Virus record (IMG/VR): IMGVR_UViG_3300003878_000001
Coordinates: 1 to 64,000 of that record
Source: a virus
DNA length: 64,000 bases
Reading direction: 5' to 3' (one strand)
Below are positions 40,838 to 63,409 of the stretch, piece after piece (position 1 is the stretch's first letter; every line of letters starts with the position of its first letter). The notes below the pieces were generated by a model that was not told the DNA's origin, made no database searches, and worked only from the letters and a program-made list of their open reading frames with translations. The translations under genes were made by a program, and so were the position numbers.

Positions 40838-41185
40838 ATGGATGAGAATCGATTAATTGAAACAGTCTCCGATTTGGTAAGAGAAATGGCTGTTGTTGCA
40901 AATAAGATGGAAAATCTTACTGAAGCTGTTGTTGCCAGTAATATTGAATCCAAGGATCAAAATAAAAGAATTGATCTTTTAGAGAAAAGTCGTACCCAAT
41001 TGTTGACTTTATTTGGTGCTTCAGTTGCCGTTGTTGGTGTTGTGTCATCAATTGGTTTATGGGGTCTTAGCCGTTATGTTGATGAAAGATTTGATAGTAA
41101 GATCGGACAAGTTGATTTTCAATATCGACTGTGTTTAGAGTATAAAGGAATCGATATTGAAAATAGACCATCTATTTGTCAATAA
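40838..41185 (+). CDS. small single-pass membrane protein (115 aa), plus strand
   Basis: AGGAG lies 5 nt before ATG 40838. Coiled-coil-like N-terminus, then a TM segment LFGASVAVVGVVSSIGLWGL. Confidence 0.5.
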   Translation: MDENRLIETVSDLVREMAVVANKMENLTEAVVASNIESKDQNKRIDLLEKSRTQLLTLFGASVAVVGVVSSIGLWGLSRYVDERFDSKIGQVDFQYRLCLEYKGIDIENRPSICQ

Positions 41186-41642
41186 GTCTCAAGAAATAAG
41201 CATCAGGAAATACATCAGAAATAATCTCACGGACAAAAGACCAATTCCCTCCACCAAGTCCGCAACCCATACCGTAAGGAAAAATAATGCGTGACTTTGG
41301 TTTTTCAATAAGGTCACGCATTGTTATTAATGCTTTACCCAATTGAGCATAATTGGTATACCTTTTGTCTGTACCATATCGATCTTGACCAAATAGATTT
41401 ACAACAAACTTGCCAGGGTATTCTTCAAGATAACACATTTGAGATACACCTAAAAGCTCACCTTCAACTCTAGCTGTACAACGATGCCGATATAGATCAT
41501 TCACAATAGGAAACTCTTGAGCAATCTGTCTTGCTATACCTGCTCCCATTATACCTTGACAATTGACTTGATGTCCAATTAAAATGTCTCCTTTATAATT
41601 TCTAAAATATTCAATGGCATCACCATTAATAATCTGAGTCAT
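41172..41642 (-). CDS. macro-domain protein (Macro_2/Poa1-like ADP-ribose-binding or hydrolase)
   Basis: HQVNCQGIMGAGIARQI, NLFGQ and GMGCGLGGGNW. Start at ATG 41642 (TAATG coupling). Confidence 0.8.
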   Translation of the reverse strand: MTQIINGDAIEYFRNYKGDILIGHQVNCQGIMGAGIARQIAQEFPIVNDLYRHRCTARVEGELLGVSQMCYLEEYPGKFVVNLFGQDRYGTDKRYTNYAQLGKALITMRDLIEKPKSRIIFPYGMGCGLGGGNWSFVREIISDVFPDAYFLRLIDK

Positions 41643-41881
41643 TACATTAAGCCCCAATTCTCATAAATATCATCAATTGTTGGAACAGGACTATGGACAC
41701 TCTCAAATGTTGGATCAACAGTCGGATACATAAGAGAATGCCAAGCCCGTACCACATAGAAAAACTCTGAGAAAGGGTGAAACATTACAACAATCTTCCA
41801 CAGATTCAATTGCCAAAGAGCTTTAGACAGAATCAGATTTACCCCTGAACTTCTTTTATTCCACATTATAACAAATGTCAT
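41642..41881 (-). CDS. hypothetical protein (79 aa)
   Basis: Coupled to the macro-domain gene. Confidence 0.45.
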   Translation of the reverse strand: MTFVIMWNKRSSGVNLILSKALWQLNLWKIVVMFHPFSEFFYVVRAWHSLMYPTVDPTFESVHSPVPTIDDIYENWGLM

Positions 41882-41936
41882 TACGAATCTCCTATATAGT
41901 ACTTTTTCTCAAAATCCAGAAGCCTGGAGTATTGTT

Positions 41937-42305
41937 CTACTTCGATGTAAGTTTCTCCTTCTGGGTGCTGCTTTGTTGATCTGTAAATGTGTTGTGCAAT
42001 CGACATAAGCTCATCCCCCAATTCTCAGCATACTGTTTTTCCCAAAGGTCGAAATCCATACGACCATAGAAATCAAAGTCTTCTAATTGGAAGTTTATCA
42101 CGTCATCAACAGAATAGGATTTCTTTTCCGCACCAATCCACCAGCGTTTGAGTCTAGACATCCTGTTCAATTTATTAACAAGGTCGTTTGCCCACTCTCT
42201 TACTTTCTCTATTCTTTTTAGACTTATAGTTTTTATGACTTTTTCACTTAAAACTATAAGTTCAGTATTAGAGATTTGTTGTAGTCCAATTAGTTTCTGT
42301 TTCAT
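41937..42305 (-). CDS. hypothetical basic protein (122 aa)
   Basis: Start taken at ATG 42305, forming an ATGA overlap with the stop of 42302-42784. Confidence 0.45.
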   Translation of the reverse strand: MKQKLIGLQQISNTELIVLSEKVIKTISLKRIEKVREWANDLVNKLNRMSRLKRWWIGAEKKSYSVDDVINFQLEDFDFYGRMDFDLWEKQYAENWGMSLCRLHNTFTDQQSSTQKEKLTSK

Positions 42306-42784
42306 AGCTTGAAGAATGATTTGATAGGAAAACCGTCTGCCATCCAGTGTAAAAAATCGTTGATACATAGTCCACCAAAGAACCATACAACAATCTCTCT
42401 ATTGCTCCAAAGGAATTCACTAGCCTGTTCATGATATTGATGGTCATATCCGGTATAGACGAAATGAACCCAACACAATAAGCTAGGCAACAGGAACCAA
42501 GCATAAATATAGACACATCTCCAAAATGTTGACCAAATTGGAATGTGTGTATGAAAACTACGGTGTGTTGTAAAATCCTGATATGGTTTCCAAATAAATT
42601 CAAGAAGAAGCCAATGATTTGTAATATGTGAATTCAAATCGTTATCAGGATTTAGCAACCAAGTAGAGAATAGACAACCACTTGCCAAAGCGATAGAATC
42701 ACCCGATTGATCTGCTATTGCTAGAACACCTAATAAGGTGGAAGCAAACAAACCTTGACCAATATGTATTTTACCGCTTGCCAT
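42302..42784 (-). CDS. membrane protein with a metal-binding-like HRSFHTH motif (DUF2227/YdjM-like)
   Basis: Several hydrophobic segments and a His-rich motif. The competing frames 42268-42603 and 42730-43020 are judged spurious. Confidence 0.45.
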   Translation of the reverse strand: MASGKIHIGQGLFASTLLGVLAIADQSGDSIALASGCLFSTWLLNPDNDLNSHITNHWLLLEFIWKPYQDFTTHRSFHTHIPIWSTFWRCVYIYAWFLLPSLLCWVHFVYTGYDHQYHEQASEFLWSNREIVVWFFGGLCINDFLHWMADGFPIKSFFKL

Positions 42785-42787
42785 ATC

Positions 42788-43351
42788 TTAATAGTTATCT
42801 CCAATATGAATATCATTACCACAGAAATCGCCGCCATTGGTTCGGATATTGATACTATTACCAAAATGTTGATTAACTTGTCCAACAACATTTCCATTTC
42901 CACCAATGATAGTGCCACCATTGACAGAACCAATTGTAATATTATTGTTTCCTCGGACGGTCTGTTTAATTCTGTTTCCTCTAAATTGTGTTCGACCTGT
43001 GTTAACAAAGAACAATTCAAAGGGAATCAGCTTAAGAATACCACAAGCCTCATTAAAGTATGTGTTCAATTCGTGGTGTTCTACATCTCCAAATGTCATT
43101 GGAAAGCCAAAAGATTTTACAATCTCGTCTAAATGGCTTTGGACATTATTTTGAAGGAATTGATTCAATCGTTGGTTTTTCTCTGCCTTACGTCCCATTG
43201 TTGCTATGCCTTTGAATAATGGAACAAAGGTATTAACTGTAATCCCGTCAACTTCTAGCTCATCTACAAACTTCATTAAAGCAGCCAGATAAGCGGTAAT
43301 ATAAGGAGTCAGTTTAATTTCTGTGGTTTGAATTGTTTGAATTTGAAGCAT
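42788..43351 (-). CDS. hypothetical protein with C-terminal Gly/Asn-rich beta-helix-like repeats
   Basis: C-terminus GNNNITIGSVNGGTIIGGNGNVVGQVNQHFGNSINIRTNGGDFCGNDIHIGDN. Confidence 0.5.
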   Translation of the reverse strand: MLQIQTIQTTEIKLTPYITAYLAALMKFVDELEVDGITVNTFVPLFKGIATMGRKAEKNQRLNQFLQNNVQSHLDEIVKSFGFPMTFGDVEHHELNTYFNEACGILKLIPFELFFVNTGRTQFRGNRIKQTVRGNNNITIGSVNGGTIIGGNGNVVGQVNQHFGNSINIRTNGGDFCGNDIHIGDNY

Positions 43352-43412
43352 AGTATTGTTTAATTGGATACTCTCATTATATTGCTCTATAGTTTATATA
43401 GTGAGAGTAAAT

Positions 43413-44081
43413 TTACTGAACTAGAGAACGAAGTTGAAGCTTATCTTGCAACAAAGCAGAAGCCAAACGGTCATGTTGAGCAAAGAATTGAAACACATGT
43501 ACTACATTCCCTCGCTTAAACATTCTGTCTGCCTGTTGAGCCAATCTATCACGGTTTGCAGATTGCACGACAGAAAGCAAATCGGGATCATCAGCCAATT
43601 GATGTAGAACCGGGCTCAAAGAAAATCCCTTTGCTTGAAATCTTACGGCTCTAAATACTCTTTCTGGAGACTGCAAAAAACAATCCATATGGCAAGGTCT
43701 GAGAACTTTATCGTTCAAATCGGCTTGTCCAAAAAGAGGGTCTACCAATTGTTGAGTCTTACAGTTCAACGCCATAGCATTAACTGTGAAATCACGAGAA
43801 GCAAGATCAGCATCTAGACTGTCTACTACTTTGAAATCCAATACCCCTAGATCGTGCTTTGCTTTTGCAGTTTTGGCATCAGCATTAAGAACGAAACTAG
43901 ATCCAGATTTTTGAGGCAATGGGGAACATCCAAGCTGTACAAGCAGTGCAGGAAGTTGGTCAAAACTATCAAGCCCTACTACCACAAAATCTAGATCATT
44001 AGGTGCTACGTTCATCAATTGGTCACGTACTCCTCCTCCAACTAGAAAGACATCAACGTTATCAGGTATAAATTTGAACAT
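43413..44081 (-). CDS. short CCA-adding / poly(A) polymerase-family nucleotidyltransferase (head-neck only)
   Basis: Start at ATG 44081 (SD GAGG). Motifs LVGGGVRDQL, DLDFVV, RDFTVNAMA and SPERVFRAVRF. At ~222 aa it lacks the usual body/tail half. By eye the gene looks richer in G+C than its neighbours. Confidence 0.8.
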   Translation of the reverse strand: MFKFIPDNVDVFLVGGGVRDQLMNVAPNDLDFVVVGLDSFDQLPALLVQLGCSPLPQKSGSSFVLNADAKTAKAKHDLGVLDFKVVDSLDADLASRDFTVNAMALNCKTQQLVDPLFGQADLNDKVLRPCHMDCFLQSPERVFRAVRFQAKGFSLSPVLHQLADDPDLLSVVQSANRDRLAQQADRMFKRGNVVHVFQFFAQHDRLASALLQDKLQLRSLVQ

Positions 44082-44099: not shown

Positions 44100-44294
44100 T
44101 TAGAGCTTTACGGTACGGGTTAAATCAAAACCAATGGTTCTTTTCGCCCCTGTCTTCTTAATTATAGCCTGAATTTGTTTGTCTGTCAAGGATGAATTTT
44201 TGCCTTGAACGATTGTATTATCCGATCTGCGTAGCATGTTATTAATGATTGATCCACCTGATCTTAATTCTTTGATTGCATCCAATTGATTCAT
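44100..44294 (-). CDS. hypothetical protein (64 aa)
   Basis: Minus-strand ORF. Confidence 0.45.
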   Translation of the reverse strand: MNQLDAIKELRSGGSIINNMLRRSDNTIVQGKNSSLTDKQIQAIIKKTGAKRTIGFDLTRTVKL

Positions 44295-44329: not shown

Positions 44330-45712
44330 TTATACTACAGATTCAGGGAGAACAAAATCCTTTTCAGCAGCATATGCACGGTTTAACATGATCCATTGAT
44401 CCTTATTCTTAAATCTAAAGTGACCAGTTCCTTTTTTATAGAACTTCGCCTCCCAGAAATTAAAATCATACCATTCTCCAGGGTAAATAGTGCCTTCACG
44501 TTCCTTTAACTTTCGTAAAGTAATCATGTTGTCATAATTGGAGCCTGTCAAGTTGCACATTACTTTTAACAGGTCATCAATATAATCTTGTTTCCCTCTG
44601 TAACAGAAATCTAAGGAGGTGCCATTCCAATTAACTTCAACGAGATAATCTACAATAAATTTTTGATTTAACATGTGACCGCTATTAGTTTTCCAACCAG
44701 CAACGCCCCAACGATTTTTATCTGTATATCGTGTAAAATGATCAACAGATTCAACTAAAGCCTGTTTTAATGTTTCCTGTCGAGTCATCATGATCATTTC
44801 AATCATGACATAGACATTTTTCATTGTAAAAGGTACATTTGTTTGAGTTTCAACAAACTTGTTAATCTTGTCAATCATACCTCTTGTGACATATTTTCTC
44901 ATATTTAGCATATCAATCGCTTTTGACCAAGCAACCTTTTGCATATGTTTGGAAAATTGTTGACGAGTAGTCACTTCGTTGTTATGACCATATGATACAG
45001 AGAATCGGATACCCGAAAAATCAAGACTTGAAGTCGTATATTTCATCTCTTTTTGAAGAACTAGCAGCTTATCAAAAACTTTCATCGCTCCAACATGAGA
45101 TTGAACAAGACGCCTAACACTGTTATTCTCTGCCAAGCCTATTCTAGTTTCTTCTTCATCAGGTTCCATAAAGAACATACTTTCATAGTCGAAGTCTTCT
45201 GAGACAACAGGAACATACAACTTAATGAGTCCAACAGTTACATTTGTTTTACGTTCTGCATCTGTAAACACTTCACCAAGATTTACTGTTAACCCATAAT
45301 TACGAATCAATGAACTAAGTTTACTATAGTGATAGTCTTTTGAAATAGTTTCCCAATTACAAAGACTAATGATTTCACAACCTTCCGGAGCAATATCAAA
45401 AGCATGTTGAATATGTTCGTGAGCATTGGCAAAAGGTGGATTCATGACAATCATATCCACATGAGAAATGTCTGAGGATTGGACATCAAGAAAATCTTGA
45501 CCAACAAATTCACAATCTTTGGTCTGAAGAATAGCTCGTAAATCCTCTTCAATCTCACAAACAAGAATACGACTTGCTCCAATATCTTTAAGATAGTCAA
45601 CTAGATCGCCTTTACCTGCTGAAGGTTCTAAAACAATTTTACCCGTGACATCTAAACCCATTAGTTCTGATACAGATCTTGGAGTAGGGTAAAAACCAGC
45701 ATTAAACATCAA
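44330..45712 (-). CDS. N6-adenine DNA methyltransferase with a large C-terminal extension
   Basis: LEPSAGKGDL (motif I) and IVMNPPF (motif IV). About 270 aa of extra C-terminal domain. Confidence 0.85.
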   Translation of the reverse strand: MMFNAGFYPTPRSVSELMGLDVTGKIVLEPSAGKGDLVDYLKDIGASRILVCEIEEDLRAILQTKDCEFVGQDFLDVQSSDISHVDMIVMNPPFANAHEHIQHAFDIAPEGCEIISLCNWETISKDYHYSKLSSLIRNYGLTVNLGEVFTDAERKTNVTVGLIKLYVPVVSEDFDYESMFFMEPDEEETRIGLAENNSVRRLVQSHVGAMKVFDKLLVLQKEMKYTTSSLDFSGIRFSVSYGHNNEVTTRQQFSKHMQKVAWSKAIDMLNMRKYVTRGMIDKINKFVETQTNVPFTMKNVYVMIEMIMMTRQETLKQALVESVDHFTRYTDKNRWGVAGWKTNSGHMLNQKFIVDYLVEVNWNGTSLDFCYRGKQDYIDDLLKVMCNLTGSNYDNMITLRKLKEREGTIYPGEWYDFNFWEAKFYKKGTGHFRFKNKDQWIMLNRAYAAEKDFVLPESVV

Positions 45713-47260: not shown

Positions 47261-48136
47261 TTAGAAATTTCCCTCAGCTACTTGGAAACATTGTAACCCA
47301 ATTGATCGCCACATGTCAACCACTTGTTGACGATCATCAAAGACAGCAATCACATTAAAATCAGGTTCAACATGTTTTCTAAACAACTCTTCCTTGACAA
47401 TATTGTCTTTTCGAGTGTCTCCCTCCATACGCATGAATAGGGATAGCTCACCCTTTAGCAAACCATGCCGTAATAACCATTCTGTTGTCTGTCGGTAACA
47501 CTCAAGAGTACCTTCACGACCGCTCATAAAGATGATTTTATGAGTTTTTGCCCAACGTTGAATAGTTTCGATAACAGGCGTATTAGGCAAGTCTTCACCT
47601 ACTCTATCCCACTCATAAGGGGAGCGTTCATCCATTAGAGCAACAGTACCATCAATATCGCAAAGAATTACATCCACCTTATCAGGATCATGAATAACAG
47701 GAGTGATAGGCTTTCTGATGAATTGGTTATACATCCGTTTGATGACTTTTTCACCAACAGAAACAGGACGCTTAAGATCTCTGGCAATACACTCTTCCAA
47801 TGAAACATTAAGAAAAGAACGATTAACAGTGACTTTAACAGTTGCTCCAAAATTTTCACGAACAATTTGACGAATTCTCGCTTCGTGGGATGGAGCCAAA
47901 TTGGTATCACTGACAACAACATGTTTACCTGCTTTTAGACAAGAAATAATCAATTGGTCTCTCATCTCAAGAATGAATTTCTCGTTATTCTTTGACCAGT
48001 GAGAATCATGAAGCATCGCCCTAAGACAATCTTTTTCAACTCTAAACCATGAACGGTTTTTAGAATTGACCAATTCTTTTGCATAGGTTGATTTACCACT
48101 TGCAGGTAAACCCATTAAAATTTGTACTTGTAACAT
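47261..48136 (-). CDS. polynucleotide 5'-kinase / 3'-phosphatase (T4 PseT-like Pnkp)
   Basis: N-terminal P-loop GLPASGKST. C-terminal HAD phosphatase CDIDGTVA...IFMSGRE...FDDRQQVVDMW. Confidence 0.85.
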   Translation of the reverse strand: MLQVQILMGLPASGKSTYAKELVNSKNRSWFRVEKDCLRAMLHDSHWSKNNEKFILEMRDQLIISCLKAGKHVVVSDTNLAPSHEARIRQIVRENFGATVKVTVNRSFLNVSLEECIARDLKRPVSVGEKVIKRMYNQFIRKPITPVIHDPDKVDVILCDIDGTVALMDERSPYEWDRVGEDLPNTPVIETIQRWAKTHKIIFMSGREGTLECYRQTTEWLLRHGLLKGELSLFMRMEGDTRKDNIVKEELFRKHVEPDFNVIAVFDDRQQVVDMWRSIGLQCFQVAEGNF

Positions 48137-48677: not shown

Positions 48678-49103
48678 TCAGCATATACACTGATTAATCC
48701 ATATGGCTTGCTCTTGTGGTACACTCAAATCTAATGTCCATATTTGTGAAGGACGTGATAAGTAGTGTAAAGTTAAGGTAATACAGTTTTCAGGATCTAC
48801 TTCTTGATCATAGCCATTGCAATAGAGCATATGTACTATCATTTCTGTACTTGTTTTAGGTGATAAACTGTCAGGAGTATGTACAATTAACATTAATTTA
48901 TGTAAGTCCAATCGTGAGGAGTGTTCATGCGATATTTTTCTAAAACACATTTCACCTGTATATTGTTTATTATCATATTCTTGAATAAGAACTATATCAT
49001 TGGGTTTGAATTTTTGTGATTCGTCAACAATGATATAGTTCTTATTTCTTTTGAGAATAAGATTATATTCAATAGAATCCATCGTTCTGTATTTAAGAAC
49101 CAT
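48678..49103 (-). CDS. ASCH/DUF3850-like (PUA-fold) protein
   Basis: FKPNDIVLIQEYDNKQYTGE matches the DUF3850-type pattern (ND..VGD.L.L.E....YTG). Confidence 0.45.
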   Translation of the reverse strand: MVLKYRTMDSIEYNLILKRNKNYIIVDESQKFKPNDIVLIQEYDNKQYTGEMCFRKISHEHSSRLDLHKLMLIVHTPDSLSPKTSTEMIVHMLYCNGYDQEVDPENCITLTLHYLSRPSQIWTLDLSVPQEQAIWINQCIC

Positions 49104-49384
49104 TAGTGATCTCTCATTGGTCTGATGTTATTGGTTCCGAGATGGGTAGGGATGTCAGCAGAAAAATCACTAGGGGCATCAAAAACAGTTCCTTCAGAGT
49201 CTACGATTCTAGTCATTTCCGCACCTAAAAACTTAGACAATTTACAAGAATTAGTTTTTGTTTTAACAAAAAGCTCTTCACTGTCATCATGACCACGAGA
49301 AAGATAGAAAGCAGTGTAATCTGGTAAACTGCCAATTGGCATATGTGCATCAGTCGGGTGAACTCTAGGCATAATATTTTTCAA
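49103..49384 (-). CDS. hypothetical protein (93 aa)
   Basis: 1-nt overlap with the downstream gene. Confidence 0.45.
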   Translation of the reverse strand: MKNIMPRVHPTDAHMPIGSLPDYTAFYLSRGHDDSEELFVKTKTNSCKLSKFLGAEMTRIVDSEGTVFDAPSDFSADIPTHLGTNNIRPMRDH

Positions 49385-50441: not shown

Positions 50442-50485
50442 AATATATTTCCTTCTCTTGAACTTATTATAACTAATGAAAAACA

Positions 50486-50797
50486 CTATGTCAAATACTT
50501 TGTGGGGATGTAATCAGTATACAATAGGTAAGGAAGAACCATAAGAACTTCAATTTTTGTATCAAAACACCATTCCTTTAAGGTATCTGTTCTAGTTAGA
50601 ATGTATGTACATCCTCTTATGGAATAGGTAATGATCAACTTGTTACCAAAATTTAATCTTACTTGTTTTCCTGATAACTGTCTAACATGTTCCGGGCCAT
50701 CCATGTTACGAATTAGATCAGATAAAGGGCTTAAATAGTTCTTTGCTGCTACGTAAGCCCGAGGATGTAAACCATTAGGCAATTTCTGACTCATCAA
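50486..50797 (-). CDS. hypothetical protein (103 aa)
   Basis: Minus-strand ORF. Confidence 0.45.
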   Translation of the reverse strand: MMSQKLPNGLHPRAYVAAKNYLSPLSDLIRNMDGPEHVRQLSGKQVRLNFGNKLIITYSIRGCTYILTRTDTLKEWCFDTKIEVLMVLPYLLYTDYIPTKYLT

Positions 50798-54783: not shown

Positions 54784-55215
54784 TTATCGTTTTCTATTTC
54801 TAAAGTTATCTGTTGTATAGTGACAATTTGGGCATAGTAACTGTAGATTTTCTCTAACATTATTTCTGTTGTTCCCGTCTATATGGTGTAACTCTAATCC
54901 AATTTTTTGACTAAGCCATTTTGATAATCCACAGTGTTCACACTTATGTTTTCTTTCTTTTATTAGTCTTGCTTTTATAGAAGAGGGTTTTAGTAAATCA
55001 TCAAATTTCTTAAACTCTTTTCCTGCATTATGAGCTTGATGTACCATGTGACTCGTATCCAATTGAAACTTATCTATGTTCCTTTGTAAATTGGAAAAAT
55101 TACCGCCTGCTGTTACAAGACCCATTTTTCTTAAACATTCTGCATAAGTATCAGAACTTGAAACAATAGGCTCAAGTTGTTCTTTAGTCCATCTTGTGTA
55201 TTTCTTGGAAGACAT
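54784..55215 (-). CDS. HNH homing endonuclease
   Basis: CEHCGLSKW...LELHHIDGNNRNNVRENLQLLCPNCH. Paralog of 60902-61423. Confidence 0.85.
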   Translation of the reverse strand: MSSKKYTRWTKEQLEPIVSSSDTYAECLRKMGLVTAGGNFSNLQRNIDKFQLDTSHMVHQAHNAGKEFKKFDDLLKPSSIKARLIKERKHKCEHCGLSKWLSQKIGLELHHIDGNNRNNVRENLQLLCPNCHYTTDNFRNRKR

Positions 55216-55287: not shown

Positions 55288-55361
55288 TGCCAGTAACAGG
55301 AGTCGAACCTGCACTTGACCGTGCTTAAAACGGTTGCCTCTTCCAATTGGGCTATACTGGC
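55288..55361 (-). tRNA. tRNA-Leu-type (anticodon UAA) with a short variable loop
   Basis: Hand fold: GCCAGTA/TACTGGC, ACCGT-TTTAAGC-ACGGT, 5-nt variable loop CAAGT, GCAGG-TTCGACT-CCTGT, A73. No encoded CCA. Confidence 0.7.
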
Positions 55362-55703
55362 AGATGTCTGTATCTCATTGGCTAGAGCAGACAGACGGCT
55401 GAGGTTTATATATCGGCATCCAGTCCGCTCAATAAGAACTAAACCTAGAGGCTATGCCATCGTTGGTTATCGTGGTTCATACGTTTAATGCTTACCCGAT
55501 TAAATTAGGCACGAGAGAGATTATTCATACATCGTGTTAACTCTTTGAACGATTCAAAGTCACCCTCCGATATTTTGACCTCGGGAACGGGAAACCGGAA
55601 AAGTCACCGGATATAATCTGATTGTTCCTTTCACAGATCATATTTAGCCTCCGATTGGTTGAGGCACCCCTTAGAACAGGTATGGAACAAACCTATTCAA
55701 AGC
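55362..55703 (-). ncRNA. ORF-free, hairpin-dense ~340-nt segment (candidate stable RNA; strand uncertain)
   Basis: No ORF of 60 aa or more in any frame. Visibly richer in G+C than its surroundings. Many local stems (CTTTGAA-CGA-TTCAAAG, GCCTC...GAGGC, CGG-GAAA-CCG, ATATAATCTG...CAGATCATAT). It shares AACCGGAAAAnTCnCCGG with 62345-62595. Confidence 0.3.
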
Positions 55704-55908: not shown

Positions 55909-55980
55909 AGCCTCCACTCGGAACCGAACCGAGATCTTGGCTTTACAAGAGCCGTATTCTTCCAGTTAAACTATAGAGGC
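55909..55980 (-). tRNA. tRNA-Thr (anticodon UGU)
   Basis: Hand fold: GCCTCTA/TGGAGGC, anticodon loop CTTGTAA, CTCGG-TTCGGTT-CCGAG. No encoded CCA. Confidence 0.7.
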
Positions 55981-55985: not shown

Positions 55986-56213
55986 TTAAGCAGCTAAAAC
56001 GGCTTCTTTTAATTGGTCAGGTGTAATTGTTACGGTATCAAATACGGCAATTAAACCGGATTCTGTTGTTTTAATGGTAACATCTTGAGAATGTTCTGAT
56101 CCAGCTTCAAAAACCCCTTGAATCTCTGTGCTGGTGCCGTCAAGAAGATCTACTATGTCTAGTGGACCTGCTGTAATAGAACCAGCATATGTAGCAAAAG
56201 GTAAAGAAATCAT
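55986..56213 (-). CDS. hypothetical protein (75 aa)
   Basis: ATGA overlap with the basic-peptide ORF upstream. Confidence 0.45.
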   Translation of the reverse strand: MISLPFATYAGSITAGPLDIVDLLDGTSTEIQGVFEAGSEHSQDVTIKTTESGLIAVFDTVTITPDQLKEAVLAA

Positions 56214-56338
56214 GTTTTTAACTTTTTCGATAGTGTTTTCATTCTCTTTTTGTACTGACGTAACTTTGCAGATCCGCCACGACCTTTACGATTACGTCCT
56301 TTCTTACGAGGAGATTCATGGCTTTTTAATCGGTTCAT
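56210..56338 (-). CDS. 42-aa highly basic peptide, paralog A (below the ORF-track cutoff)
   Basis: MNRLKSHESPRKKGRNRKGRGGSAKLRQYKKRMKTLSKKLKT. SD GAGGG upstream and an ATGA overlap downstream. About three quarters of residues match 63182-63310 although the DNA has diverged. Confidence 0.6.
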   Translation of the reverse strand: MNRLKSHESPRKKGRNRKGRGGSAKLRQYKKRMKTLSKKLKT

Positions 56339-56388: not shown

Positions 56389-56598
56389 TCAATCAGTGAA
56401 ATTACTTAATAATGATTTTACAGTGGAGGTTATATGACTTGCCAATTGTTGAGGGTTTCTAGTACCTGATGAACGAGATAGATCAAGATTAGAGTAAGCA
56501 CCTTCTAAAGCTTTACCCAAAAGATAACGCTCTAAATATTGTCTTCGTGTCTCTGTTACTTGAATTAGATTAGTAGTTTCGGGTTGATTGGTTGGCAT
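56389..56598 (-). CDS. hypothetical protein (69 aa)
   Basis: Overlaps the 3' end of the NTase gene by 29 nt. Confidence 0.4.
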   Translation of the reverse strand: MPTNQPETTNLIQVTETRRQYLERYLLGKALEGAYSNLDLSRSSGTRNPQQLASHITSTVKSLLSNFTD

Positions 56599-57376
56599 AG
56601 TATGTCTCTATCATTTCAATGAAAAAATCACTTAATTGTTGCTCTGGTAAAGGCTTAGGAAATACATCAAAATCTAATTCATCCAGAATATTCATCATTC
56701 TTGAACATTCCTCTTGAACATAATCTAATCTAATTTGACCTGCTTTGATTTTTCTAAGAAGTAACTCTTGTTTATACGAAAAACCATTAATGTTAATAAC
56801 TAGATCACGCTTTAAGTAAATGTAGTGCAATTGGTAAAGTAATCGAAGACAATGCATAGCATGTTTAACAGGATAACCGGCATTCTCATCAGCTACTTTA
56901 CGAATTGACGTTTTCACAGGAGAAGGTAAGTCAATTTCAGAACATAGGTTTTGAGTCTTATTGCTTAATCGCTTTAATTGTGCATAAGCATAACCTTTAT
57001 ATGTTTTTATAACATTTCTGTTCAAAAACATAAACCTATTATCAATGAGTTTTTGACCTGTAGGTGTAATGATCTTGTGGTTAGGATTAAAAATAACTTC
57101 AAGAATATTTGGATTAGCTTTGTTCGCTAATTTCAAATATTTTTTCAAATCCCAAACAACAGTATCTTCAGATAGAAATTTAAGTTTTCCATCTTCCTCT
57201 AACCAACCACTATCTTTCTGTTCAAAACCTTCATAACGAACATAATCAGAAAAATATGGACGGATCATAATTCCACGCCAATCATAATCGCTGGAATCGG
57301 TCTCCATGCCATATGAACGACTACCCGCCAAAGCCATCAGAATGATGTTATTTTCAATGGTTTTTCTGTTATACAT
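56570..57376 (-). CDS. Pol-beta-superfamily nucleotidyltransferase, RlaP-like
   Basis: N-terminal LAGSRSYGMETDSSDYDWRG (G-S...D-x-D signature) and a helical C-terminal half. Confidence 0.55.
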   Translation of the reverse strand: MYNRKTIENNIILMALAGSRSYGMETDSSDYDWRGIMIRPYFSDYVRYEGFEQKDSGWLEEDGKLKFLSEDTVVWDLKKYLKLANKANPNILEVIFNPNHKIITPTGQKLIDNRFMFLNRNVIKTYKGYAYAQLKRLSNKTQNLCSEIDLPSPVKTSIRKVADENAGYPVKHAMHCLRLLYQLHYIYLKRDLVININGFSYKQELLLRKIKAGQIRLDYVQEECSRMMNILDELDFDVFPKPLPEQQLSDFFIEMIETYYANQSTRNY

Positions 57377-58217: not shown

Positions 58218-58289
58218 CCGATCTGGTAGGAATCGAACCCACGTATCCAGGGGTAGAAACCCTGAGCTAATCCCCTCAGCTACAGACCG
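58218..58289 (-). tRNA. tRNA-Arg (anticodon UCU)
   Basis: Hand fold: CGGTCTG/CAGATCG, CAGGG-TTTCTAC-CCCTG, GTGGG-TTCGATT-CCTAC. No encoded CCA. Its 5' end overlaps the last 10 nt of ORF 58280-58555. Confidence 0.75.
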
Positions 58290-58907: not shown

Positions 58908-58982
58908 TGGCTCGCCTTGTAGGATTTGAACCCACATCGCACGGTTTTGGAGACCGGCATGTTACCATTACACCAAAGACGA
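58908..58982 (-). tRNA. tRNA-Trp (anticodon CCA), CCA end encoded
   Basis: Hand fold: TCGTCTT/AAGGCGA, loop CTCCAAA, GTGGG-TTCAAAT-CCTAC, G73 followed by CCA. Confidence 0.75.
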
Positions 58983-58992
58983 TTAAGAATGT

Positions 58993-59069
58993 TGGTGATG
59001 AGAACAGGATTTGAACCTGTGACCTCTGGCTTATGAGACCAGCGAACTACCAGACTGTTCTATCTCATC
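58993..59069 (-). tRNA. tRNA with CAU anticodon (second copy), CCA end encoded
   Basis: Hand fold: GATGAGA/TCTCATC, GAAC-AGTCTGGTA-GTTC, CTGGT-CTCATAA-GCCAG, ACAGG-TTCAAAT-CCTGT, A73-CCA. Confidence 0.8.
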
Positions 59070-59094
59070 ATAAAAGAGAATACATTTTAACAAT

Positions 59095-59173
59095 TGGTAG
59101 CGAGAGGCAGGAGTCGAACCTGCAATCTCCAGCTTATGAGACTGGCATGGTATATCCGTTCCACTACTCCGCT
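59095..59173 (-). tRNA. tRNA with CAU anticodon (third copy), bulged acceptor stem, CCA end encoded
   Basis: Hand fold: AGCGGAG pairs with CTC(T)CGCT only if one T is bulged. CCAGT-CTCATAA-GCTGG, GCAGG-TTCGACT-CCTGC, A-CCA. Confidence 0.6.
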
Positions 59174-59236: not shown

Positions 59237-59461
59237 TTACAGATATTCGTCTTTAATTAGAAAATAAGATAACTTATTTGCTCGACCAACAAAGATTAAA
59301 CGGCTGTCTTCCTTGACAATTTGATCATGGACACCACCACGAACCACAATAGAACCACCACAACGGCAAACAGAATTATATCCTAGTTGAATGTTTTCCC
59401 AGATACATCCCTTATTGTCAATGAGTTTGTCTAGTGCTGTTTGTGTTTTATTCTTTTTCAT
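59237..59461 (-). CDS. hypothetical protein (74 aa)
   Basis: Overlaps the HNH 3' end by 14 nt. Confidence 0.45.
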   Translation of the reverse strand: MKKNKTQTALDKLIDNKGCIWENIQLGYNSVCRCGGSIVVRGGVHDQIVKEDSRLIFVGRANKLSYFLIKDEYL

Positions 59462-59738
59462 TATCTACATACCTTTGTTTGTAATTGTTTTCTTGAGAAC
59501 AAGTATATTTTCTGTGACAATTAGAACAGAGTATTTCACATTTAGATATCTCTCTAAGAATCATATCTATAGGTTGTTTACCCATCATATGAGAAACATT
59601 CTCTTTCTTATTTCCTAAATGGTTGAACTCTAAACAGCGAACATCAGATTCACCACAATGAGCACACGGATTATTTGCCAAATGATCAAGAATAACTTGT
59701 CTATGAAAATTCTTGGTATTTCTGTCATACCTAATCAT
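59448..59738 (-). CDS. HNH endonuclease (small)
   Basis: CAHCGESD...LEFNHLGNKKENV...ILCSNCH. ATG 59738 forms an ATGA overlap with the small ORF upstream. Confidence 0.75.
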   Translation of the reverse strand: MIRYDRNTKNFHRQVILDHLANNPCAHCGESDVRCLEFNHLGNKKENVSHMMGKQPIDMILREISKCEILCSNCHRKYTCSQENNYKQRYVDNEKE

Positions 59739-59851
59739 CGAATTATCACAAGAGCTAAAGCAAACAAGAGAAACCAATCAAACTTAGTCCATCCTCCTGC
59801 TAAACCACGGCAAACCCATTGATAGGCACCATTGACCACTTCCATATTCAT
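59735..59851 (-). CDS. possible small membrane peptide (38 aa), below the ORF-track cutoff
   Basis: ATG 59851 to TGA 59735 with an ATGA overlap to the HNH start. C-terminal WFLLFALALVII. Confidence 0.35.
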   Translation of the reverse strand: MNMEVVNGAYQWVCRGLAGGWTKFDWFLLFALALVIIR

Positions 59852-59877: not shown

Positions 59878-60588
59878 CTAACTTCTTTGCTTTGAATTGG
59901 AAAGTAAGTTTAAGTTATGACCTTTTTCACTAAATAGTATCTTAGAAAGATCTGTGAAGTAAGAAAGAGCATCCATAGTTCTAATTACATCATATTGTAA
60001 ACACTTGTTAAGCTCTTTGACAATATAATTACGGTAACGAGGGTGATTTAGATAATCTAAGACATTATCATCAAACAGTGAAAGAGTTAATTCACGATCT
60101 GCACTTAAATCACATTGAACAATAAATCTTAATGCTCTCATGATTCTACGTGGGTCTTCAATTAGTCGTTCTGTAGCATTACCAATACATCTTAATCTTC
60201 GATACTTACAATCAGCTAAACCGCCAAAGTAATCTACAACAACTTGATCAAGAATATTGCGAGCAATAGCGTTAATAGTGAAGTCTCGACGTTCTAAATC
60301 TTGAAATAGTGACCCGGGTTCAGAGTAAACTAGAGTGCCATTGATATATTTTTCACCAGTTCGACAAAGAACAAAGTCATCCACTTGACCATCAATAGGA
60401 TTCTTACATTTTAATGTATGACGTTCAGGAATTTCATGTTTAATCTCATACCCTAGTGCATTCAACGTATATCTCATCACGTCAAAACTAGATGCCACAA
60501 CACAATGATCCCTGTCACCAGATCTTTCTCCTTTAATATGTAAATCTCGAAGTGAACCACCTACTTCATAAATTTCGATGCTTTCCAT
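59878..60588 (-). CDS. second short CCA-adding / poly(A) polymerase-family nucleotidyltransferase
   Basis: EVGGSLRD, GDRDHCVV, RRDFTINAIA and DPRRIMRALRF. At ~236 aa it also lacks the tRNA-binding body/tail. ATG 60588 is preferred over TTG 60606. Confidence 0.8.
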   Translation of the reverse strand: MESIEIYEVGGSLRDLHIKGERSGDRDHCVVASSFDVMRYTLNALGYEIKHEIPERHTLKCKNPIDGQVDDFVLCRTGEKYINGTLVYSEPGSLFQDLERRDFTINAIARNILDQVVVDYFGGLADCKYRRLRCIGNATERLIEDPRRIMRALRFIVQCDLSADRELTLSLFDDNVLDYLNHPRYRNYIVKELNKCLQYDVIRTMDALSYFTDLSKILFSEKGHNLNLLSNSKQRS

Positions 60589-60627: not shown

Positions 60628-60709
60628 CGGAAGAAGGAGGAATTGAACCCCAACCTAAAGATCGATCTGTTTAGCAAACAGCCCTTGAAACCATTCAAGA
60701 TCATCTTCC
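60628..60709 (-). tRNA. tRNA-Ser (anticodon GCU), long variable arm
   Basis: Hand fold: GGAAGAT/TTCTTCC (6 bp plus a mismatch), loop TTGCTAA, ~14-nt variable arm, T loop TTCAATT, G73. No encoded CCA. Confidence 0.65.
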
Positions 60710-60710
60710 A

Positions 60711-60748: not shown

Positions 60749-60852
60749 CATAACTGGTTCAACAAACAGACACCTAAGACAAAAACAGAACCTGTTAGGA
60801 CAATTAGTGTTGCAATCTCAAAAAAGTATTTCATGTTCTTATGTAAATAGAA

Positions 60853-60935
60853 CGGAAGATAAAAGAATCGAACTCTTAGGGTTTCACTCCTAGCCACGGG
60901 TTCAAACCGTGTTTACCGCCTTGGTGCTATCTTCC
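60853..60935 (-). tRNA. tRNA-Ser (anticodon UGA), long variable arm
   Basis: Hand fold: GGAAGAT/ATCTTCC, CACGG-TTTGAAC-CCGTG, variable arm with TAGG/CCTA stem, AAGAG-TTCGATT-CTTTT, G73. No encoded CCA. The D arm is poorly resolved by hand. Confidence 0.65.
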
Positions 60936-61423
60936 AAATGTATTCTGTTTTTGTTCTTGTATGTTGGAGTTTGAGAATGACAATTAGGACAGATTACTCG
61001 TAAGTTCTCTAGTCTGTTGTCGTTTCTTACTCCATTGATGTGATCTAACTCTAGAGAGATAGGTTGCTCATTCCAAACAGAAAGATTGCAAATTTCACAC
61101 TGATGTTGTTTTATCCCTTCTCTAATGAGTTTCAATCTAAGCTTATGTGTTGAGATAAAATCACCGTTCAACTCTAGATATTCTTTTGCAGGTCTGTATT
61201 TACTTGTTCTTCTTGGTTTACTCTTGTACCAATCAGATTCTATCTCGTAACTTTTCTCTATTTTAGCACAAGCTCTGAAGTATTGACCATTCATTCTTTT
61301 AATCTCTATTCCTAGAAAGCTTTCAAGAAATTTTTGTTTGGTTGAACAGTTGTTCATTAATACCAAAACTTGTCCTTTAGTCCACTCTCTAATAGATTGA
61401 TTTACTAAATCAGATAGTCTCAT
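60902..61423 (-). CDS. HNH homing endonuclease whose last 11 codons lie inside tRNA-Ser(UGA)
   Basis: CEICNLSVW...LELDHINGVRNDNRLENLRVICPNCH. The ORF reads through tRNA positions 1-36 and stops at TGA, which is the anticodon triplet. Confidence 0.85.
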   Translation of the reverse strand: MRLSDLVNQSIREWTKGQVLVLMNNCSTKQKFLESFLGIEIKRMNGQYFRACAKIEKSYEIESDWYKSKPRRTSKYRPAKEYLELNGDFISTHKLRLKLIREGIKQHQCEICNLSVWNEQPISLELDHINGVRNDNRLENLRVICPNCHSQTPTYKNKNRIHLEDSTKAVNTV

Positions 61424-61463: not shown

Positions 61464-61494
61464 TAACCTGTTTGACACCTTGCCGCTATCTTCC
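61464..61494 (-). pseudogene. duplicated 5' half of a tRNA-Ser-like gene (no T arm follows)
   Basis: The minus strand GGAAGATAGCGGCAAGGTGTCAAACAGGTTA matches GGAAGATAGCACCAAGGCGGTAAACACGGTT of tRNA-Ser(UGA) at about 24 of 30 positions. Confidence 0.5.
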
Positions 61495-61740
61495 AAATTT
61501 ATCAACAATATCCTCTTTCATGTCAACAAAAGTCAGCCAAATATAGCTAAGACTTTTAACAACAGGTTTGAAAGTCTCTCCATCGTGGTTCACATTAGCA
61601 GAAGTGTAATAATCAAGACAATCCCAAAAATATCTAGGATCGGGATCTGCATCCATTTTGTTTAATGGGTATCGAGCTTGATTGTACCAATCTTCAAAAC
61701 AGATTGCCCAGCTTTCAGCTAATTGTTGTACTTTAGTCAT
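61486..61740 (-). CDS. hypothetical protein (84 aa)
   Basis: ATG 61740 with SD GGTGGA. The stop lies in the tRNA-like fragment. Confidence 0.45.
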   Translation of the reverse strand: MTKVQQLAESWAICFEDWYNQARYPLNKMDADPDPRYFWDCLDYYTSANVNHDGETFKPVVKSLSYIWLTFVDMKEDIVDKFGR

Positions 61741-62344: not shown

Positions 62345-62595
62345 ATCTTTATTCCTTGACTCTATACCGAGTATACTTTAATAAGAGTGTAATAGGTTCA
62401 GTGATATTGCTGAAATCCGGTTTGTTGGGTAACAAGGATAACCGGAAAATTCCCCGGCTCATCTAGGCAGCAACTAGGCTACGCTTACGAGCGAAAGGCA
62501 CAATGTTATTAGCAGTTGTGTTTAGTCGATTGATCAACAGTTAAGTCTCATCTTCTACCAGTCGAAACCAAGTAATACCCCGTGAGAGAAGAGAT
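62345..62595 (-). ncRNA. ORF-free, hairpin-dense ~250-nt segment downstream of the HNH gene (candidate stable RNA; strand uncertain)
   Basis: No long ORF. Visibly G+C-richer than its surroundings. Stems include TCCGGTT...AACCGGA enclosing TTGTT-ACCC-AACAA. It shares AACCGGAAAAnTCnCCGG with 55362-55703. Confidence 0.3.
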
Positions 62596-62916
62596 TTATT
62601 TATTCCAGGGAGTATGACCGTTCTGAAATCTTTTACCATGAGGAACAGAAATTCTGCCCTTTTGATAAGCGTCTTTCATATTGTCTGAATTAGTCCCTAG
62701 AAAGAGATGTTCAGGATTGACACATTTAGGATTGTCGCAATGATGGCATACCATTAAAGATTCGTCAAATTCGCCATTGGCTAGCCTGTAAGCTACTCTA
62801 TGAGCGGATTGGACTTTTCCGTTTACTTTGAAGGCACCATAAGATCCCCTGAAAGATGCTTGCCATTCGTGACAGCCTGTTGATGTTTCTTGAACTTTGT
62901 CGTAAAATCTCTTCAT
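62596..62916 (-). CDS. HNH endonuclease (HNH_3 type)
   Basis: AHRVAYRLANGEFDESLMVCHHCDNPKCVNPEHLFLGTNSDNMKD. Confidence 0.85.
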   Translation of the reverse strand: MKRFYDKVQETSTGCHEWQASFRGSYGAFKVNGKVQSAHRVAYRLANGEFDESLMVCHHCDNPKCVNPEHLFLGTNSDNMKDAYQKGRISVPHGKRFQNGHTPWNK

Positions 62917-62922
62917 AGTGTA

Positions 62923-62960
62923 TGGAGTATAGGGGAGTCGAACCCCTGTCCTGTTAGTTA
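62923..62960 (-). pseudogene. isolated tRNA 3' half (T arm plus acceptor strand) without a matching 5' half
   Basis: AGGGG-TTCGACT-CCCCT followed by ATACTCC-A. No GGAGTAT-type 5' strand was found within 250 nt upstream. Confidence 0.45.
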
Positions 62961-63069
62961 AGTATTCAACCTCTCAACCTATGACTATAATAACCAACCA
63001 ATTCATAAGATGTATCCGTATAATCAACCAATTGACTTCTTGCCACCTATTCAAATATCATCATGGTTA

Positions 63070-63120
63070 CATAGTTTATTTAATGAAAAAAGTGATAAAT
63101 AAAAGTATAAGTGTATGATG
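63070..63120. repeat. quasi-palindromic intergenic repeat, copy R7
   Basis: ACATAGTTTAT-TTAATGAAAAAAG-TGATAAATAAAAGTATAA-GTGTATGATG. Confidence 0.6.
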
Positions 63121-63131
63121 ATATTTAATGA

Positions 63132-63159
63132 GAAAAACCGCCTGAAAAGGTTCAAGCGG
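63132..63159 (-). terminator. Rho-independent terminator after the basic-peptide gene
   Basis: Minus strand CCGCTTGAA-CCTT-TTCAGGCGG (9 bp; the single G-U is a wobble only on this strand), followed by TTTTTCTC. Confidence 0.7.
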
Positions 63160-63181
63160 CTTCTTAAAGCGGATATTCATA

Positions 63182-63310
63182 TTAATGGGCCTTGAGCTTA
63201 CTGGATAGGCGTTTTTGACGCTTACGGTACTGTCTAGCCTTAGCAGAACCGCCCTTACCTTTACGATTTCGACCTGTCTTGCGTGGGCTTTCATGAGACT
63301 TTAGACGCAT
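63182..63310 (-). CDS. 42-aa highly basic peptide, paralog B
   Basis: MRLKSHESPRKTGRNRKGKGGSAKARQYRKRQKRLSSKLKAH. ATG 63310 with SD AAGGTGA. The track start at 63403 lies inside tRNA-Cys and is rejected. Confidence 0.6.
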   Translation of the reverse strand: MRLKSHESPRKTGRNRKGKGGSAKARQYRKRQKRLSSKLKAH

Positions 63311-63332
63311 GAGAATCACCTTTAGATTGAAT

Positions 63333-63409
63333 TGGAGTCTCTGACAGGATTTGAACCTGTGTCTGAAGATTTGCAGTCTTCCGCATGAACCGGACTCTAC
63401 CACAGAGAC
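63333..63409 (-). tRNA. tRNA-Cys (anticodon GCA), CCA end encoded
   Basis: Hand fold: GTCTCTG/CAGAGAC, GAAGA-CTGCAAA-TCTTC, ACAGG-TTCAAAT-CCTGT, U73 (Cys identity) followed by CCA. Confidence 0.75.

Follow-up and report, generated by a model that had tools for sequence, protein, structure and literature searches.

A candidate translation-maintenance region of a large phage, with two class II nucleotidyltransferases of half length and a homing endonuclease encoded within a permuted tmRNA gene

We analyzed a stretch of 64,000 nucleotides (positions 1 to 64,000 of the IMG/VR virus record IMGVR_UViG_3300003878_000001, hereafter the window), in which a block of about 22 kb (41172–63409) brings together genes for RNA-repair enzymes, tRNAs, and a transfer-messenger RNA (tmRNA). 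On the basis of its gene content we consider it probable, at about 0.68, that this block is a phage translation-maintenance region as proposed in the published large-phage model, with a heal-and-seal core, three 3'-end nucleotidyltransferases (NTases), and a supply of tRNAs and tmRNA. The region would be built in three layers: a conserved heal-and-seal core composed of the RNA ligase Rnl1, an ASCH-like protein, and the kinase-phosphatase Pnkp; three template-independent 3'-end nucleotidyltransferases, namely RlaP and two class II enzymes without body and tail domains (NTase 1 and NTase 2); and phage RNAs, comprising 11 tRNAs and a two-piece tmRNA. The enzymes predicted for healing (Pnkp), sealing (Rnl1), and 3'-nucleotide restoration (RlaP and the class II NTases) have intact catalytic motifs, and phage tRNAs are encoded nearby. 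The gene set is real, but its kind has already been described in large phages and the interpretation is not new. The unusual parts are the two half-size tRNA-end enzymes and the homing-endonuclease gene located inside the tmRNA gene, besides two unexplained RNAs.

In the proposed mechanism, host anticodon or acceptor-end nucleases would cut tRNAs leaving 2',3'-cyclic phosphate and 5'-OH ends. The phosphatase domain of Pnkp would then strip the 3' phosphate and its kinase domain would phosphorylate the 5' end, RlaP would restore one or two nucleotides when the break had been trimmed, and Rnl1 would seal it. NTase 2, which carries the canonical EDxxR motif, would build or rebuild the CCA end on trimmed tRNAs and on the CCA-less tRNAs and tmRNA of the phage itself. 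The tRNAs of the phage would supplement or stand in for those of the host, and stalled ribosomes would be freed by the tmRNA. We infer every one of these enzymatic steps, as well as the defence context, from sequence.

Repair enzymes and 3'-end nucleotidyltransferases

Pfam profile searches confirmed the Macro, Pnkp, Rnl1, RlaP, and two NTase genes that a preliminary description, made from the sequence alone, had placed in this block on the minus strand. The genes of the core and of RlaP are:

49365–50441, minus strand: RNA ligase of the Rnl1 (T4 RnlA) family (RNA_lig_T4_1, PF09511, E value 3.4e-15)
48678–49103, minus strand: protein tentatively assigned as ASCH/PUA-like (DUF3850), between Rnl1 and Pnkp (PF12961, E 7.6e-5)
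47261–48136, minus strand: T4-type bifunctional polynucleotide 5'-kinase/3'-phosphatase, Pnkp (HAD_PNKP, E 3e-50, plus AAA_33)
56570–57376, minus strand: RlaP-family Pol-beta nucleotidyltransferase (PF10127, E 1.8e-23)

The Pnkp protein aligns end to end with T4 Pnkp (PDB entry 1LTQ, E 4.8e-42). Its N-terminal P-loop kinase domain (AAA_33, E 5.1e-15) contains GLPASGKST at residues 9–17, aligned to the P-loop of the T4 enzyme, and its C-terminal HAD phosphatase domain contains DIDGT, aligned to DVDGT of T4, and keeps GDTRKD and DDR. With the kinase and phosphatase domains and their motifs both present, this protein is predicted to be a T4-type Pnkp. Rnl1 scores 56.9 bits with PF09511 (cutoff 28.3) and matches T4 Rnl1 (2C5U) with an E value of 6.6e-6, the alignment to the T4 structure stopping at about residue 294. 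Its PKLDGSL sequence corresponds to TKEDGSL of T4 (motif I, KxDG), and EGY and IKIK correspond to EGY and FKIK of T4 (motifs IV and V). The ligase also matches TIGR02308 over residues 53–357 (E 1.7e-15), with 57 bits against a cutoff of 242. The protein encoded between these two enzymes, earlier called ASCH/PUA-like, does match DUF3850, but over residues 14–60 only and with 23.3 bits, just 0.4 bit above the gathering score of 22.9; it had no PHROG or NCBIfam match, and its single-sequence AlphaFold 2 (AF2) model (pLDDT 35) was unusable. Our assignment of 48678–49103 as ASCH-like is accordingly a weak one.

RlaP scores 83.9 bits with PF10127 (cutoff 23) and has the Pol-beta active site AGSRSYG...DYD. 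The preliminary description saw no role assigned to this enzyme, but RlaP adds 1 or 2 nucleoside monophosphates to damaged RNA 3' ends, it is needed for the re-aminoacylation of over-damaged tRNA, and the T4 protein NrdC.11 belongs to the same family (PMC12776372).

Related metagenomic contigs (L004 to L007) were reached only via homologs of NTase 1 and Rnl1. One of them, L006 (17.2 kb), is colinear with window positions 58955–42197 (approximately 16.7 kb) at 66–83% nucleotide identity and presents the order tRNA-Met, tRNA-Arg(UCU), RlaP, tRNA-Lys(CUU), Rnl1, ASCH-like protein, HNH, Pnkp, DUF4942, NTase, and DUF2227, with an ASCH-like homolog of 148 amino acids in the same position as in the window. 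L004 keeps part of this order and continues to a Macro homolog. Because gene order is kept in related contigs, the enzyme core is conserved and the gene set is more than a chance assembly. RlaP and Rnl1 are encoded on the same strand, 6 kb apart in the window and 4.5 kb apart in L006, a looser linkage than the operonic RlaP-ligase linkage of bacteria (PMC12776372).

Apart from RlaP, the block encodes two further nucleotidyltransferases:

43413–44081, minus strand: NTase 1, mini class II nucleotidyltransferase, head and neck only, xSPER motif D (PolyA_pol head, E 3.5e-16)
59878–60588, minus strand: NTase 2, mini class II nucleotidyltransferase, head and neck only, canonical motifs A, B, and D (EDPRR) (PolyA_pol head, E 8e-14)

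The earlier designation of both proteins as truncated CCA-type enzymes holds, as together they cover only residues ~11–215 of the 390-amino acid A-adding enzyme of A. aeolicus (1VFG), to which NTase 1 aligns over residues 13–215 and NTase 2 over residues 11–200. The AF2 model of NTase 1 (pLDDT 93.9) covered about half of solved CCA-adding enzymes in Foldseek comparisons (TMq 0.75–0.78, TMt 0.41–0.49). PF13735 was absent and the window proteins gave no PF12627 match in searches for body and tail domains. Both proteins thus end after the neck. They share the head and neck fold of the class II CCA- and A-adding enzymes of A. aeolicus (1VFG/4WC2) and T. maritima (3H37/5HC9), with which they have the motifs GGxxRD...DxD, (R)RDFTxNA, and RxxRAxRF in common; they differ from them in having neither body nor tail and, in NTase 1, in the presence of xSPER in place of EDxxR. 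Motif A reads GGSLRD...DRD in NTase 2 and GGGVRD...DLD in NTase 1, and motif B reads RRDFTINA and SRDFTVNA, respectively. Motif D (EDxxR), through which the protein itself serves as template for the choice of CTP and ATP, reads EDPRR in NTase 2 and QSPER in NTase 1.

The change in motif D is a property of the NTase 1 clade. SPER is kept in the homologs P0122–P0124 and P0285, and xSPER or xHPER is found across P0122–P0124, P0285, P0286, and P0290 (the variants being DSPER, KSPER, ASPER, and KHPER); the DxD that binds metal is retained, as are RD in motif B and Arg in motif D. The clade, with proteins of about 220 amino acids, is small: a profile search of 1.84 billion representatives returned only 2 at E ≤ 1e-30. 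NTase 2 belongs to a metagenomic group of proteins of ~235–245 amino acids that retain EDxxR. Since motif D of NTase 1 reads QSPER and this departure is conserved in the clade, NTase 1 should not be filed as a CCA-adding enzyme. Class II enzymes recognize an incoming C or A by pairing it with Asp and Arg of their EDxxR motif, and the loss of this Asp in NTase 1 therefore predicts an altered nucleotide choice. We consider the xSPER motif of the NTase 1 clade the most novel lead of this analysis.

The two enzymes may then not be redundant CCA enzymes: NTase 2 would retain the CTP/ATP-selecting pocket, and the NTase 1 clade, with a rewired base pocket, would attach some other nucleotide or work on some other RNA 3' end. 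We offer this as a long shot. Candidate substrates of NTase 1 would be the CCA-less tmRNA piece, the tRNA-shaped RNA described below, and host tRNAs. If this is true, the conflict between phage and host would make use of a template-independent activity on RNA 3' ends that is new. Independently of it, the mini NTases pose the questions of how a substrate is recognized without body and tail domains, and of whether a natural change in the EDxxR template alters the nucleotide that is added. A further idea, that the two proteins form a split CC-adding and A-adding pair, came from an apparent deletion of the flexible loop in NTase 1 (a 19-amino acid gap in one MAFFT alignment). It was dropped after the HMMER alignment to 1VFG and a second alignment showed only a 2-amino acid difference there.

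Phage RNAs and homing endonucleases

The block contains the following tRNA genes:

51711–51784, minus strand: tRNA-Lys(CUU), without encoded CCA (ARAGORN and Rfam, 67.6 bits; kept in L006 at 5406–5478)
52811–52883, minus strand: tRNA with CAU anticodon (Met or Ile2), without encoded CCA
55288–55361, minus strand: tRNA-Leu(UAA), without encoded CCA (ARAGORN and Rfam)
55909–55980, minus strand: tRNA-Thr(UGU), without encoded CCA (ARAGORN and Rfam)
58218–58289, minus strand: tRNA-Arg(UCU), without encoded CCA, kept in L006 (ARAGORN and Rfam)
58911–59172, minus strand: tRNA-Trp(CCA) and two tRNA(CAU), all with encoded CCA (ARAGORN and Rfam)
60629–60709, minus strand: weak type II tRNA, probably Ser(GCU), without encoded CCA (Rfam tRNA 29.9 bits, gathering score 29; tRNA-Sec 41 bits)
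60852–60936, minus strand: tRNA-Ser(UGA), without encoded CCA, its 5' end overlapping the end of an HNH open reading frame (ORF) (ARAGORN only)
63336–63409, minus strand: tRNA-Cys(GCA), with encoded CCA (ARAGORN and Rfam)

ARAGORN calls ten tRNAs, of which Rfam confirms nine and to which it adds the weak Ser(GCU)-like gene, called by ARAGORN only at a lowered threshold. Thus, of 11 tRNAs folded by hand in the preliminary description, nine are robust (Lys-CUU, three CAU, Leu-UAA, Thr-UGU, Arg-UCU, Trp, and Cys) and the two Ser tRNAs are weak. The tRNA nearest to Rnl1 is indeed tRNA-Lys, as had been noted.

The block also contains a tmRNA gene, which the preliminary description had overlooked together with the homing endonucleases:

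62463–62971, minus strand: permuted (two-piece) tmRNA gene, without encoded CCA (RF04321, 57 bits, gathering score 47, E 2e-8)
62596–62916, minus strand: HNH_3 homing-endonuclease gene filling the intervening segment of the tmRNA gene (PF13392, E 2.1e-13)

The acceptor piece (approximately 62971–62923) precedes the coding piece (from 62581), and the two halves pair through GGGGUAU and AUACUCC, which gives G3:U70. The tag, ANNIVPFARKRSLVAA, is encoded at 62513–62463 and ends in LVAA before the stop. The HNH_3 ORF starts 6 nucleotides past the 3' end of the acceptor piece and stops 15 nucleotides short of the coding piece. ARAGORN misses the native gene and reports it as "Permuted" after in-silico deletion of the HNH ORF; a homing-endonuclease insertion can hence hide a tmRNA gene from a standard finder. 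When homologs of this HNH_3 protein were examined, none of 20 viral loci had a tmRNA. Two-piece (permuted) tmRNA genes were reportedly described by Keiler in 2000 and by Sharkady and Williams in 2004. The tmRNA of the window shares the piece order, G3:U70, the LVAA-ending tag, and an above-gathering RF04321 score with the permuted tmRNAs of Alphaproteobacteria, Cyanobacteria, and marine phages (PMC9004378, PMC11915505), and differs from them in that its intervening segment of ~340 nucleotides is filled by an intact HNH_3 ORF. A 2025 tmRNA database paper places homing endonucleases only inside T-loop group I introns and lists a tRNA-Ala and a repeat element as unusual contents of the intervening segment (PMC11915505), and we found no report in the literature of a homing endonuclease in this segment. 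With this HNH gene, a homing endonuclease would be reported from that position for the first time, which is a structural rather than a functional point.

In total, five homing-endonuclease-type ORFs were found in the block, including the one borne by the tmRNA gene; one of them is a remnant. The other four are:

54784–55215, minus strand: HNH homing-endonuclease-type ORF, in a segment absent from L006 (PF01844/PF13392, E ~4e-4)
59448–59777, minus strand: C-terminal remnant of an HNH endonuclease (PHROG 2255, E 2.1e-16)
60902–61423, minus strand: HNH homing endonuclease (PF13392/PF01844)
63425–63967, minus strand: I-TevI-like homing-endonuclease ORF with NUMOD3 and I-TevI DNA-binding domain (PF07460, E 1.6e-7; PF20987, E 2e-5)

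Upstream of the HNH gene at 60902–61423 lies a copy (61469–61502, 82% identity) of the first ~27 nucleotides of tRNA-Ser(UGA) plus a 7-nucleotide flank, with the intact tRNA on the downstream side, as though an endonuclease had inserted here and thereby duplicated a portion of the tRNA it targets. Homing endonucleases have invaded RNA genes of the block and explain much of its length and of its variability between relatives. In L006 (8729–9106) and L007 (1865–2242), an HNH_3 gene is located between the ASCH-like ORF and Pnkp, where the window has small ORFs. Endonuclease content varies at several points among the window phage and its relatives.

Three further elements are associated with the tRNA genes:

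51473–51698, minus strand: 226-nucleotide tRNA-shaped RNA, without CCA (ARAGORN intron option and brute-force deletion scan)
55363–55703, minus strand: 341-nucleotide ORF-free segment, 43% GC (background 36%), directly upstream of tRNA-Leu(UAA)
56210–56338, minus strand: ORF for a highly basic 42-amino acid peptide, 18 K/R (MNRLKSHESPRKKGRNRKGRGGSAKLRQYKKRMKTLSKKLKT)

The tRNA likeness of the 226-nucleotide RNA, noted earlier, is borne out by a seven-pair acceptor stem and canonical D and T arms; the variable region carries an insert of ~150 nucleotides. When 4,335 deletions were scanned in silico, the forms shortened by this insert scored like the real tRNAs of the window. The hairpin CCUUU/GAAACGG/AAAGG has an A at position 33, and its loop is therefore not a decoding loop. 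The RNA matched no Rfam family at E ≤ 10, Intron_gpI included, and a group I intron was rejected for this reason and because the insert is only ~150 nucleotides long. We also rejected the ARAGORN intron model, which has an AUA anticodon and a mismatched stem, as the best deletion models keep the GAAACGG hairpin with A33, and a YrlA/Y RNA, which scored 18.5 bits against a gathering score of 69 with a match spanning the end of tRNA-Lys and the start of the 226-nucleotide RNA. The insert contains, at 51651–51600, AGGAAACAGCUAUG, a strong Shine-Dalgarno sequence and AUG followed by a 12-codon ORF (MLVKLPMSTFVS), which may be a coincidence. Phage T4 produces two stable RNAs of unassigned function, species 1 and 2 (rnaC and rnaD), which have tRNA-like ends and lie among the phage tRNA genes. 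The RNA of the window may resemble them, but it has complete D and T arms and the ~150-nucleotide insert, and is absent from L006.

Of two ORF-free structured segments in the preliminary description, one turned out to be the coding piece of the permuted tmRNA. The other, at 55363–55703, is ORF-free, but it has no Rfam match and its folding z-score of -1.2 is non-significant. Similarly, two 42-amino acid basic peptides had been listed; the one at 56210–56338 is convincingly basic, and no second ORF of this length and equal basicity was found.

Neighbouring genes, phage, and host

Other genes of the block are co-located with the repair genes, and their membership in the same pathway is only putative; they are listed here together with two promoters:

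41172–41642, minus strand: Macro domain protein, DarG/TARG1/SCO6735-like (PF01661, E 2.6e-5, 24.6 bits, cutoff 22)
42302–42784, minus strand: DUF2227 protein, hydrophobic and His-rich, with conserved His/Asp motifs (PF09988, E 1.1e-22)
44330–45712, minus strand: DUF4942 protein with methyltransferase-like N-terminus (PF13708, E 1.2e-23; PHROG 32703, E 5.8e-147, and DNA methyltransferase PHROGs)
44161–44189, minus strand: perfect sigma-70 consensus promoter (TTGACA-17-TATAAT) upstream of NTase 1
50466–50494, minus strand: perfect sigma-70 consensus promoter (TTGACA-17-TATAAT), 25 nucleotides upstream of the Rnl1 ATG

The Macro protein also matches PHROG 335 (E 2.7e-36), PDB entry 5E3B (E 1.5e-9), and the NCBIfam DarG macrodomain (E 3.3e-13). 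The DUF4942 gene has ~73% nucleotide identity to L004 and L006 and is not an RNA-repair gene by homology. The DUF2227 gene follows the NTase gene in L004, L005, and L006, and a 187-amino acid ORF intervenes in the window; the DUF2227 regions of these three contigs have 72–76% nucleotide identity to the window, against 66% for NTase 1. DUF2227 follows NTase 1 in every relative, and a functional link is possible. A third perfect TTGACA-17-TATAAT promoter lies outside the block (5477–5505, minus strand), so that the window has 3 such matches against 0.14 expected. They are not exactly conserved at the related loci. The promoters at Rnl1 and NTase 1 are consistent with transcription by the unmodified host polymerase, that is, early.

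From about 39 kb to the end of the window, nearly all ORFs of at least 90 amino acids are on the minus strand. The window has a G+C content of 35.8% and also encodes a ribonucleotide reductase, a thymidylate synthase, a primase, and a topoisomerase II, from which we conclude that it derives from a large phage. Three window proteins are 100% identical to entries on a 119,165-bp JGI contig, and the block is part of a leftward gene region of a new large phage of at least 119 kb. Megablast against INPHARED (50,697 phage records) gave no near match to the window, and no close relatives were obtained with exact-product look-ups for two window proteins, an IMG/VR scan with RlaP, and two JGI metagenome scans.

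The primase matches cyanophages only (26–30% identity), and the nearest named (NCBI-annotated) homologs of Rnl1 are cyanobacterial, many of them from filamentous species (46–50% identity). Two-piece tmRNAs are typical of Cyanobacteria, Alphaproteobacteria, and aquatic phages (PMC9004378). Because of these primase and Rnl1 matches and the two-piece tmRNA, a cyanobacterium is the most likely host.

Outside the block, a C5 cytosine DNA methyltransferase and a DenV-like pyrimidine-dimer glycosylase are encoded at 31897–32757 and 27446–28285 (minus strand), both ordinary phage accessory genes. Two further ORFs there are possible RNA-end-processing candidates:

36181–36921, minus strand: calcineurin-like phosphoesterase (E 1.9e-8)
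39151–39519, minus strand: small P-loop AAA_33-like ORF (E 1.6e-5, below cutoff)

Alternative explanations and comparison with known systems

A number of observations weigh against reading the block as one translation-maintenance region. The preliminary description had presented a discrete island, and this view did not survive: the repair genes are not contiguous, with RlaP 6 kb and NTase 2 9.4 kb from Rnl1, and are spread among a methyltransferase-like gene, the five homing-endonuclease-type ORFs, and ~50 intervening ORFan ORFs without Pfam match (none of the 8 unknown ORFs tested matched PHROGs). Several items are absent from L006, which has neither the 226-nucleotide RNA nor the segment 56597–53979 with tRNA-Thr, tRNA-Leu, the 341-nucleotide stretch, an HNH gene, and the basic peptide. 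The NCBIfam scores of the ligase and of both NTases are far under the equivalog cut-offs; both NTases have neither body nor tail, by which class II enzymes hold the elbow of the tRNA, so that tRNA may not be their substrate, and in NTase 1 the E and D are missing from motif D. Among macrodomains, those of SCO6735 and DarG come closest to the Macro domain of the window, which could equally reverse DNA or RNA ADP-ribosylation, and the DUF4942 protein looks like a DNA methyltransferase. Encoded CCA is missing from 7 of the 11 tRNAs, from the tmRNA, and from the tRNA-shaped RNA. The anticodons UAA, UGU, UCU, and UGA (Leu, Thr, Arg, and Ser) fit the top codons of the phage (TTA, ACA, AGA, and TCA), as expected from plain codon supply. 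The tRNA-Lys has the anticodon CUU, and PrrC cuts the UUU species.

The macrodomain and DUF4942 similarities, the five homing-endonuclease-type ORFs, the large differences between window and L006, and the codon fit of the anticodons could all be accommodated if there were no single system, the 22 kb being an ordinary hyperplastic accessory region in which unrelated functions accumulated (tRNAs for codon supply, Pnkp and Rnl1 as a classical pair, a Macro protein directed against ADP-ribosylation, a DNA methyltransferase, homing endonucleases as selfish elements, and ORFans). We judge this unlikely, since the order RlaP ... Rnl1, ASCH-like protein, Pnkp ... NTase 1 is kept in L006 despite 17–34% nucleotide divergence, and the same enzyme families occur together in unrelated phage contigs and across jumbo phages (PMC7824862). 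Codon supply also leaves tRNA-Lys(CUU) unexplained, because the codon it reads, AAG, is the minority codon (27%). A somewhat stronger contender, which we still hold only tentatively, is that the mini NTases, and perhaps RlaP, serve maturation rather than repair, mainly finishing the phage's own CCA-less tRNAs, the acceptor piece of the tmRNA, and the tRNA-like RNA so that the host CCA enzyme is unneeded, with Pnkp and Rnl1 still forming a classical repair pair. CCA is not encoded in most phage tRNAs and in the tmRNA, and CCA addition may therefore be routine maturation. NTase 2 lies inside the tRNA array and adjoins the two CCA-less Ser tRNAs, and in the unrelated phage contig L003 a mini NTase of the NTase 2 type directly follows an array of 18 tRNAs, near tRNA-modification genes (TilS-like and MnmA-like) and Rnl2-like genes. 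However, CCA-adding activity is normally available from the host, and many cyanobacteria, whose tRNA genes come without CCA, therefore have such an enzyme of their own. Moreover, in another unrelated phage contig, L002, a mini NTase of the NTase 2 type adjoins a split Pnkp and an RNA ligase, and the surrounding 10 kb contain no tRNA; NTase 1 is located among repair genes, not tRNAs, and is without the C/A-selecting residues.

The properties of NTase 1 bear on a third possibility, which we think improbable: that the xSPER clade consists not of tRNA CCA enzymes but of 3'-tailing enzymes with another nucleotide or RNA specificity, whose action might be to mark or inactivate RNAs of the host, or to lengthen some other RNA of the phage. 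The replacement of the E and D of EDxxR across the clade with retention of DxD, the motif B RD, and the motif D Arg, the small size and distinctness of the clade, and the absence of body and tail are what such an enzyme might display, but in its fold and in every other core motif the protein matches A-adding or CCA-adding enzymes, and the gene lies within the conserved repair neighbourhood. On balance we keep the translation-maintenance reading. The layered counter-defence system of the preliminary description is retained in part: healing, sealing, and 3'-restoration enzymes with their motifs stand beside the tRNAs, the core order recurs in L006, and mini NTases adjoin repair genes in L002 and a tRNA array in L003, but maturation accounts equally well for the NTases, four tRNAs fit the top codons of the phage, and the DarG-like Macro protein suggests reversal of ADP-ribosylation at least as much as tRNA repair.

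The block is a well-delimited example of a phage RNA-repair and tRNA-supply toolkit, probably of a cyanophage, and in cyanobacterial hosts tRNA-targeting defences and their counter-measures have barely been studied. It also provides concrete reagents, namely the compact Rnl1/ASCH-like/Pnkp core, RlaP, and two class II NTases of ~230 amino acids without the tRNA-binding half, among which the xSPER mini NTase is, with the endonuclease inside the tmRNA gene, a lead for bench tests. The concept of layered healing, sealing, rebuilding, and replacement is already in the literature, and the picture of the field is unchanged.

Compared with the T4 repair set that counters PrrC (Pnkp, Rnl1, and NrdC.11), the window encodes the same kinase/HAD-phosphatase, a KxDG ligase of the RnlA family, and an NTase of the RlaP family. 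Both also have phage tRNA genes whose region harbours homing endonucleases, SegB being an example in T4. The proteins have low identity to those of T4, and the genes lie here in one co-directional block of 22 kb. To our knowledge, T4 has neither class II NTases nor a tmRNA. In addition, the tRNA-Lys beside the repair genes of the window is CUU and not the PrrC target UUU, and the host is probably a cyanobacterium.

The closest parallel is found in jumbo phages, in which tRNAs, Rnl ligases, a PKN-HAD kinase-phosphatase, RlaP, a CCA-adding enzyme, and Macro proteins co-occur (Iyer et al. 2021, Viruses 13:63, PMC7824862), so that the block is not, as had been suggested, far larger than what is known. 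In the model proposed for large phages, tRNAs are supplied, breaks are healed by the kinase-phosphatase, RlaP and the CCA enzyme put back missing nucleotides, and Rnl-type ligases seal (PMC7824862). The window shares the component list and the proposed logic with these sets, which have ATP-grasp RNA ligases among their parts (PMC7824862). Unlike them, it belongs to a phage without a close cultured relative, its class II NTases are half-length, duplicated, and in one case changed in motif D, and its RNAs further include a two-piece tmRNA with a homing-endonuclease gene inside.

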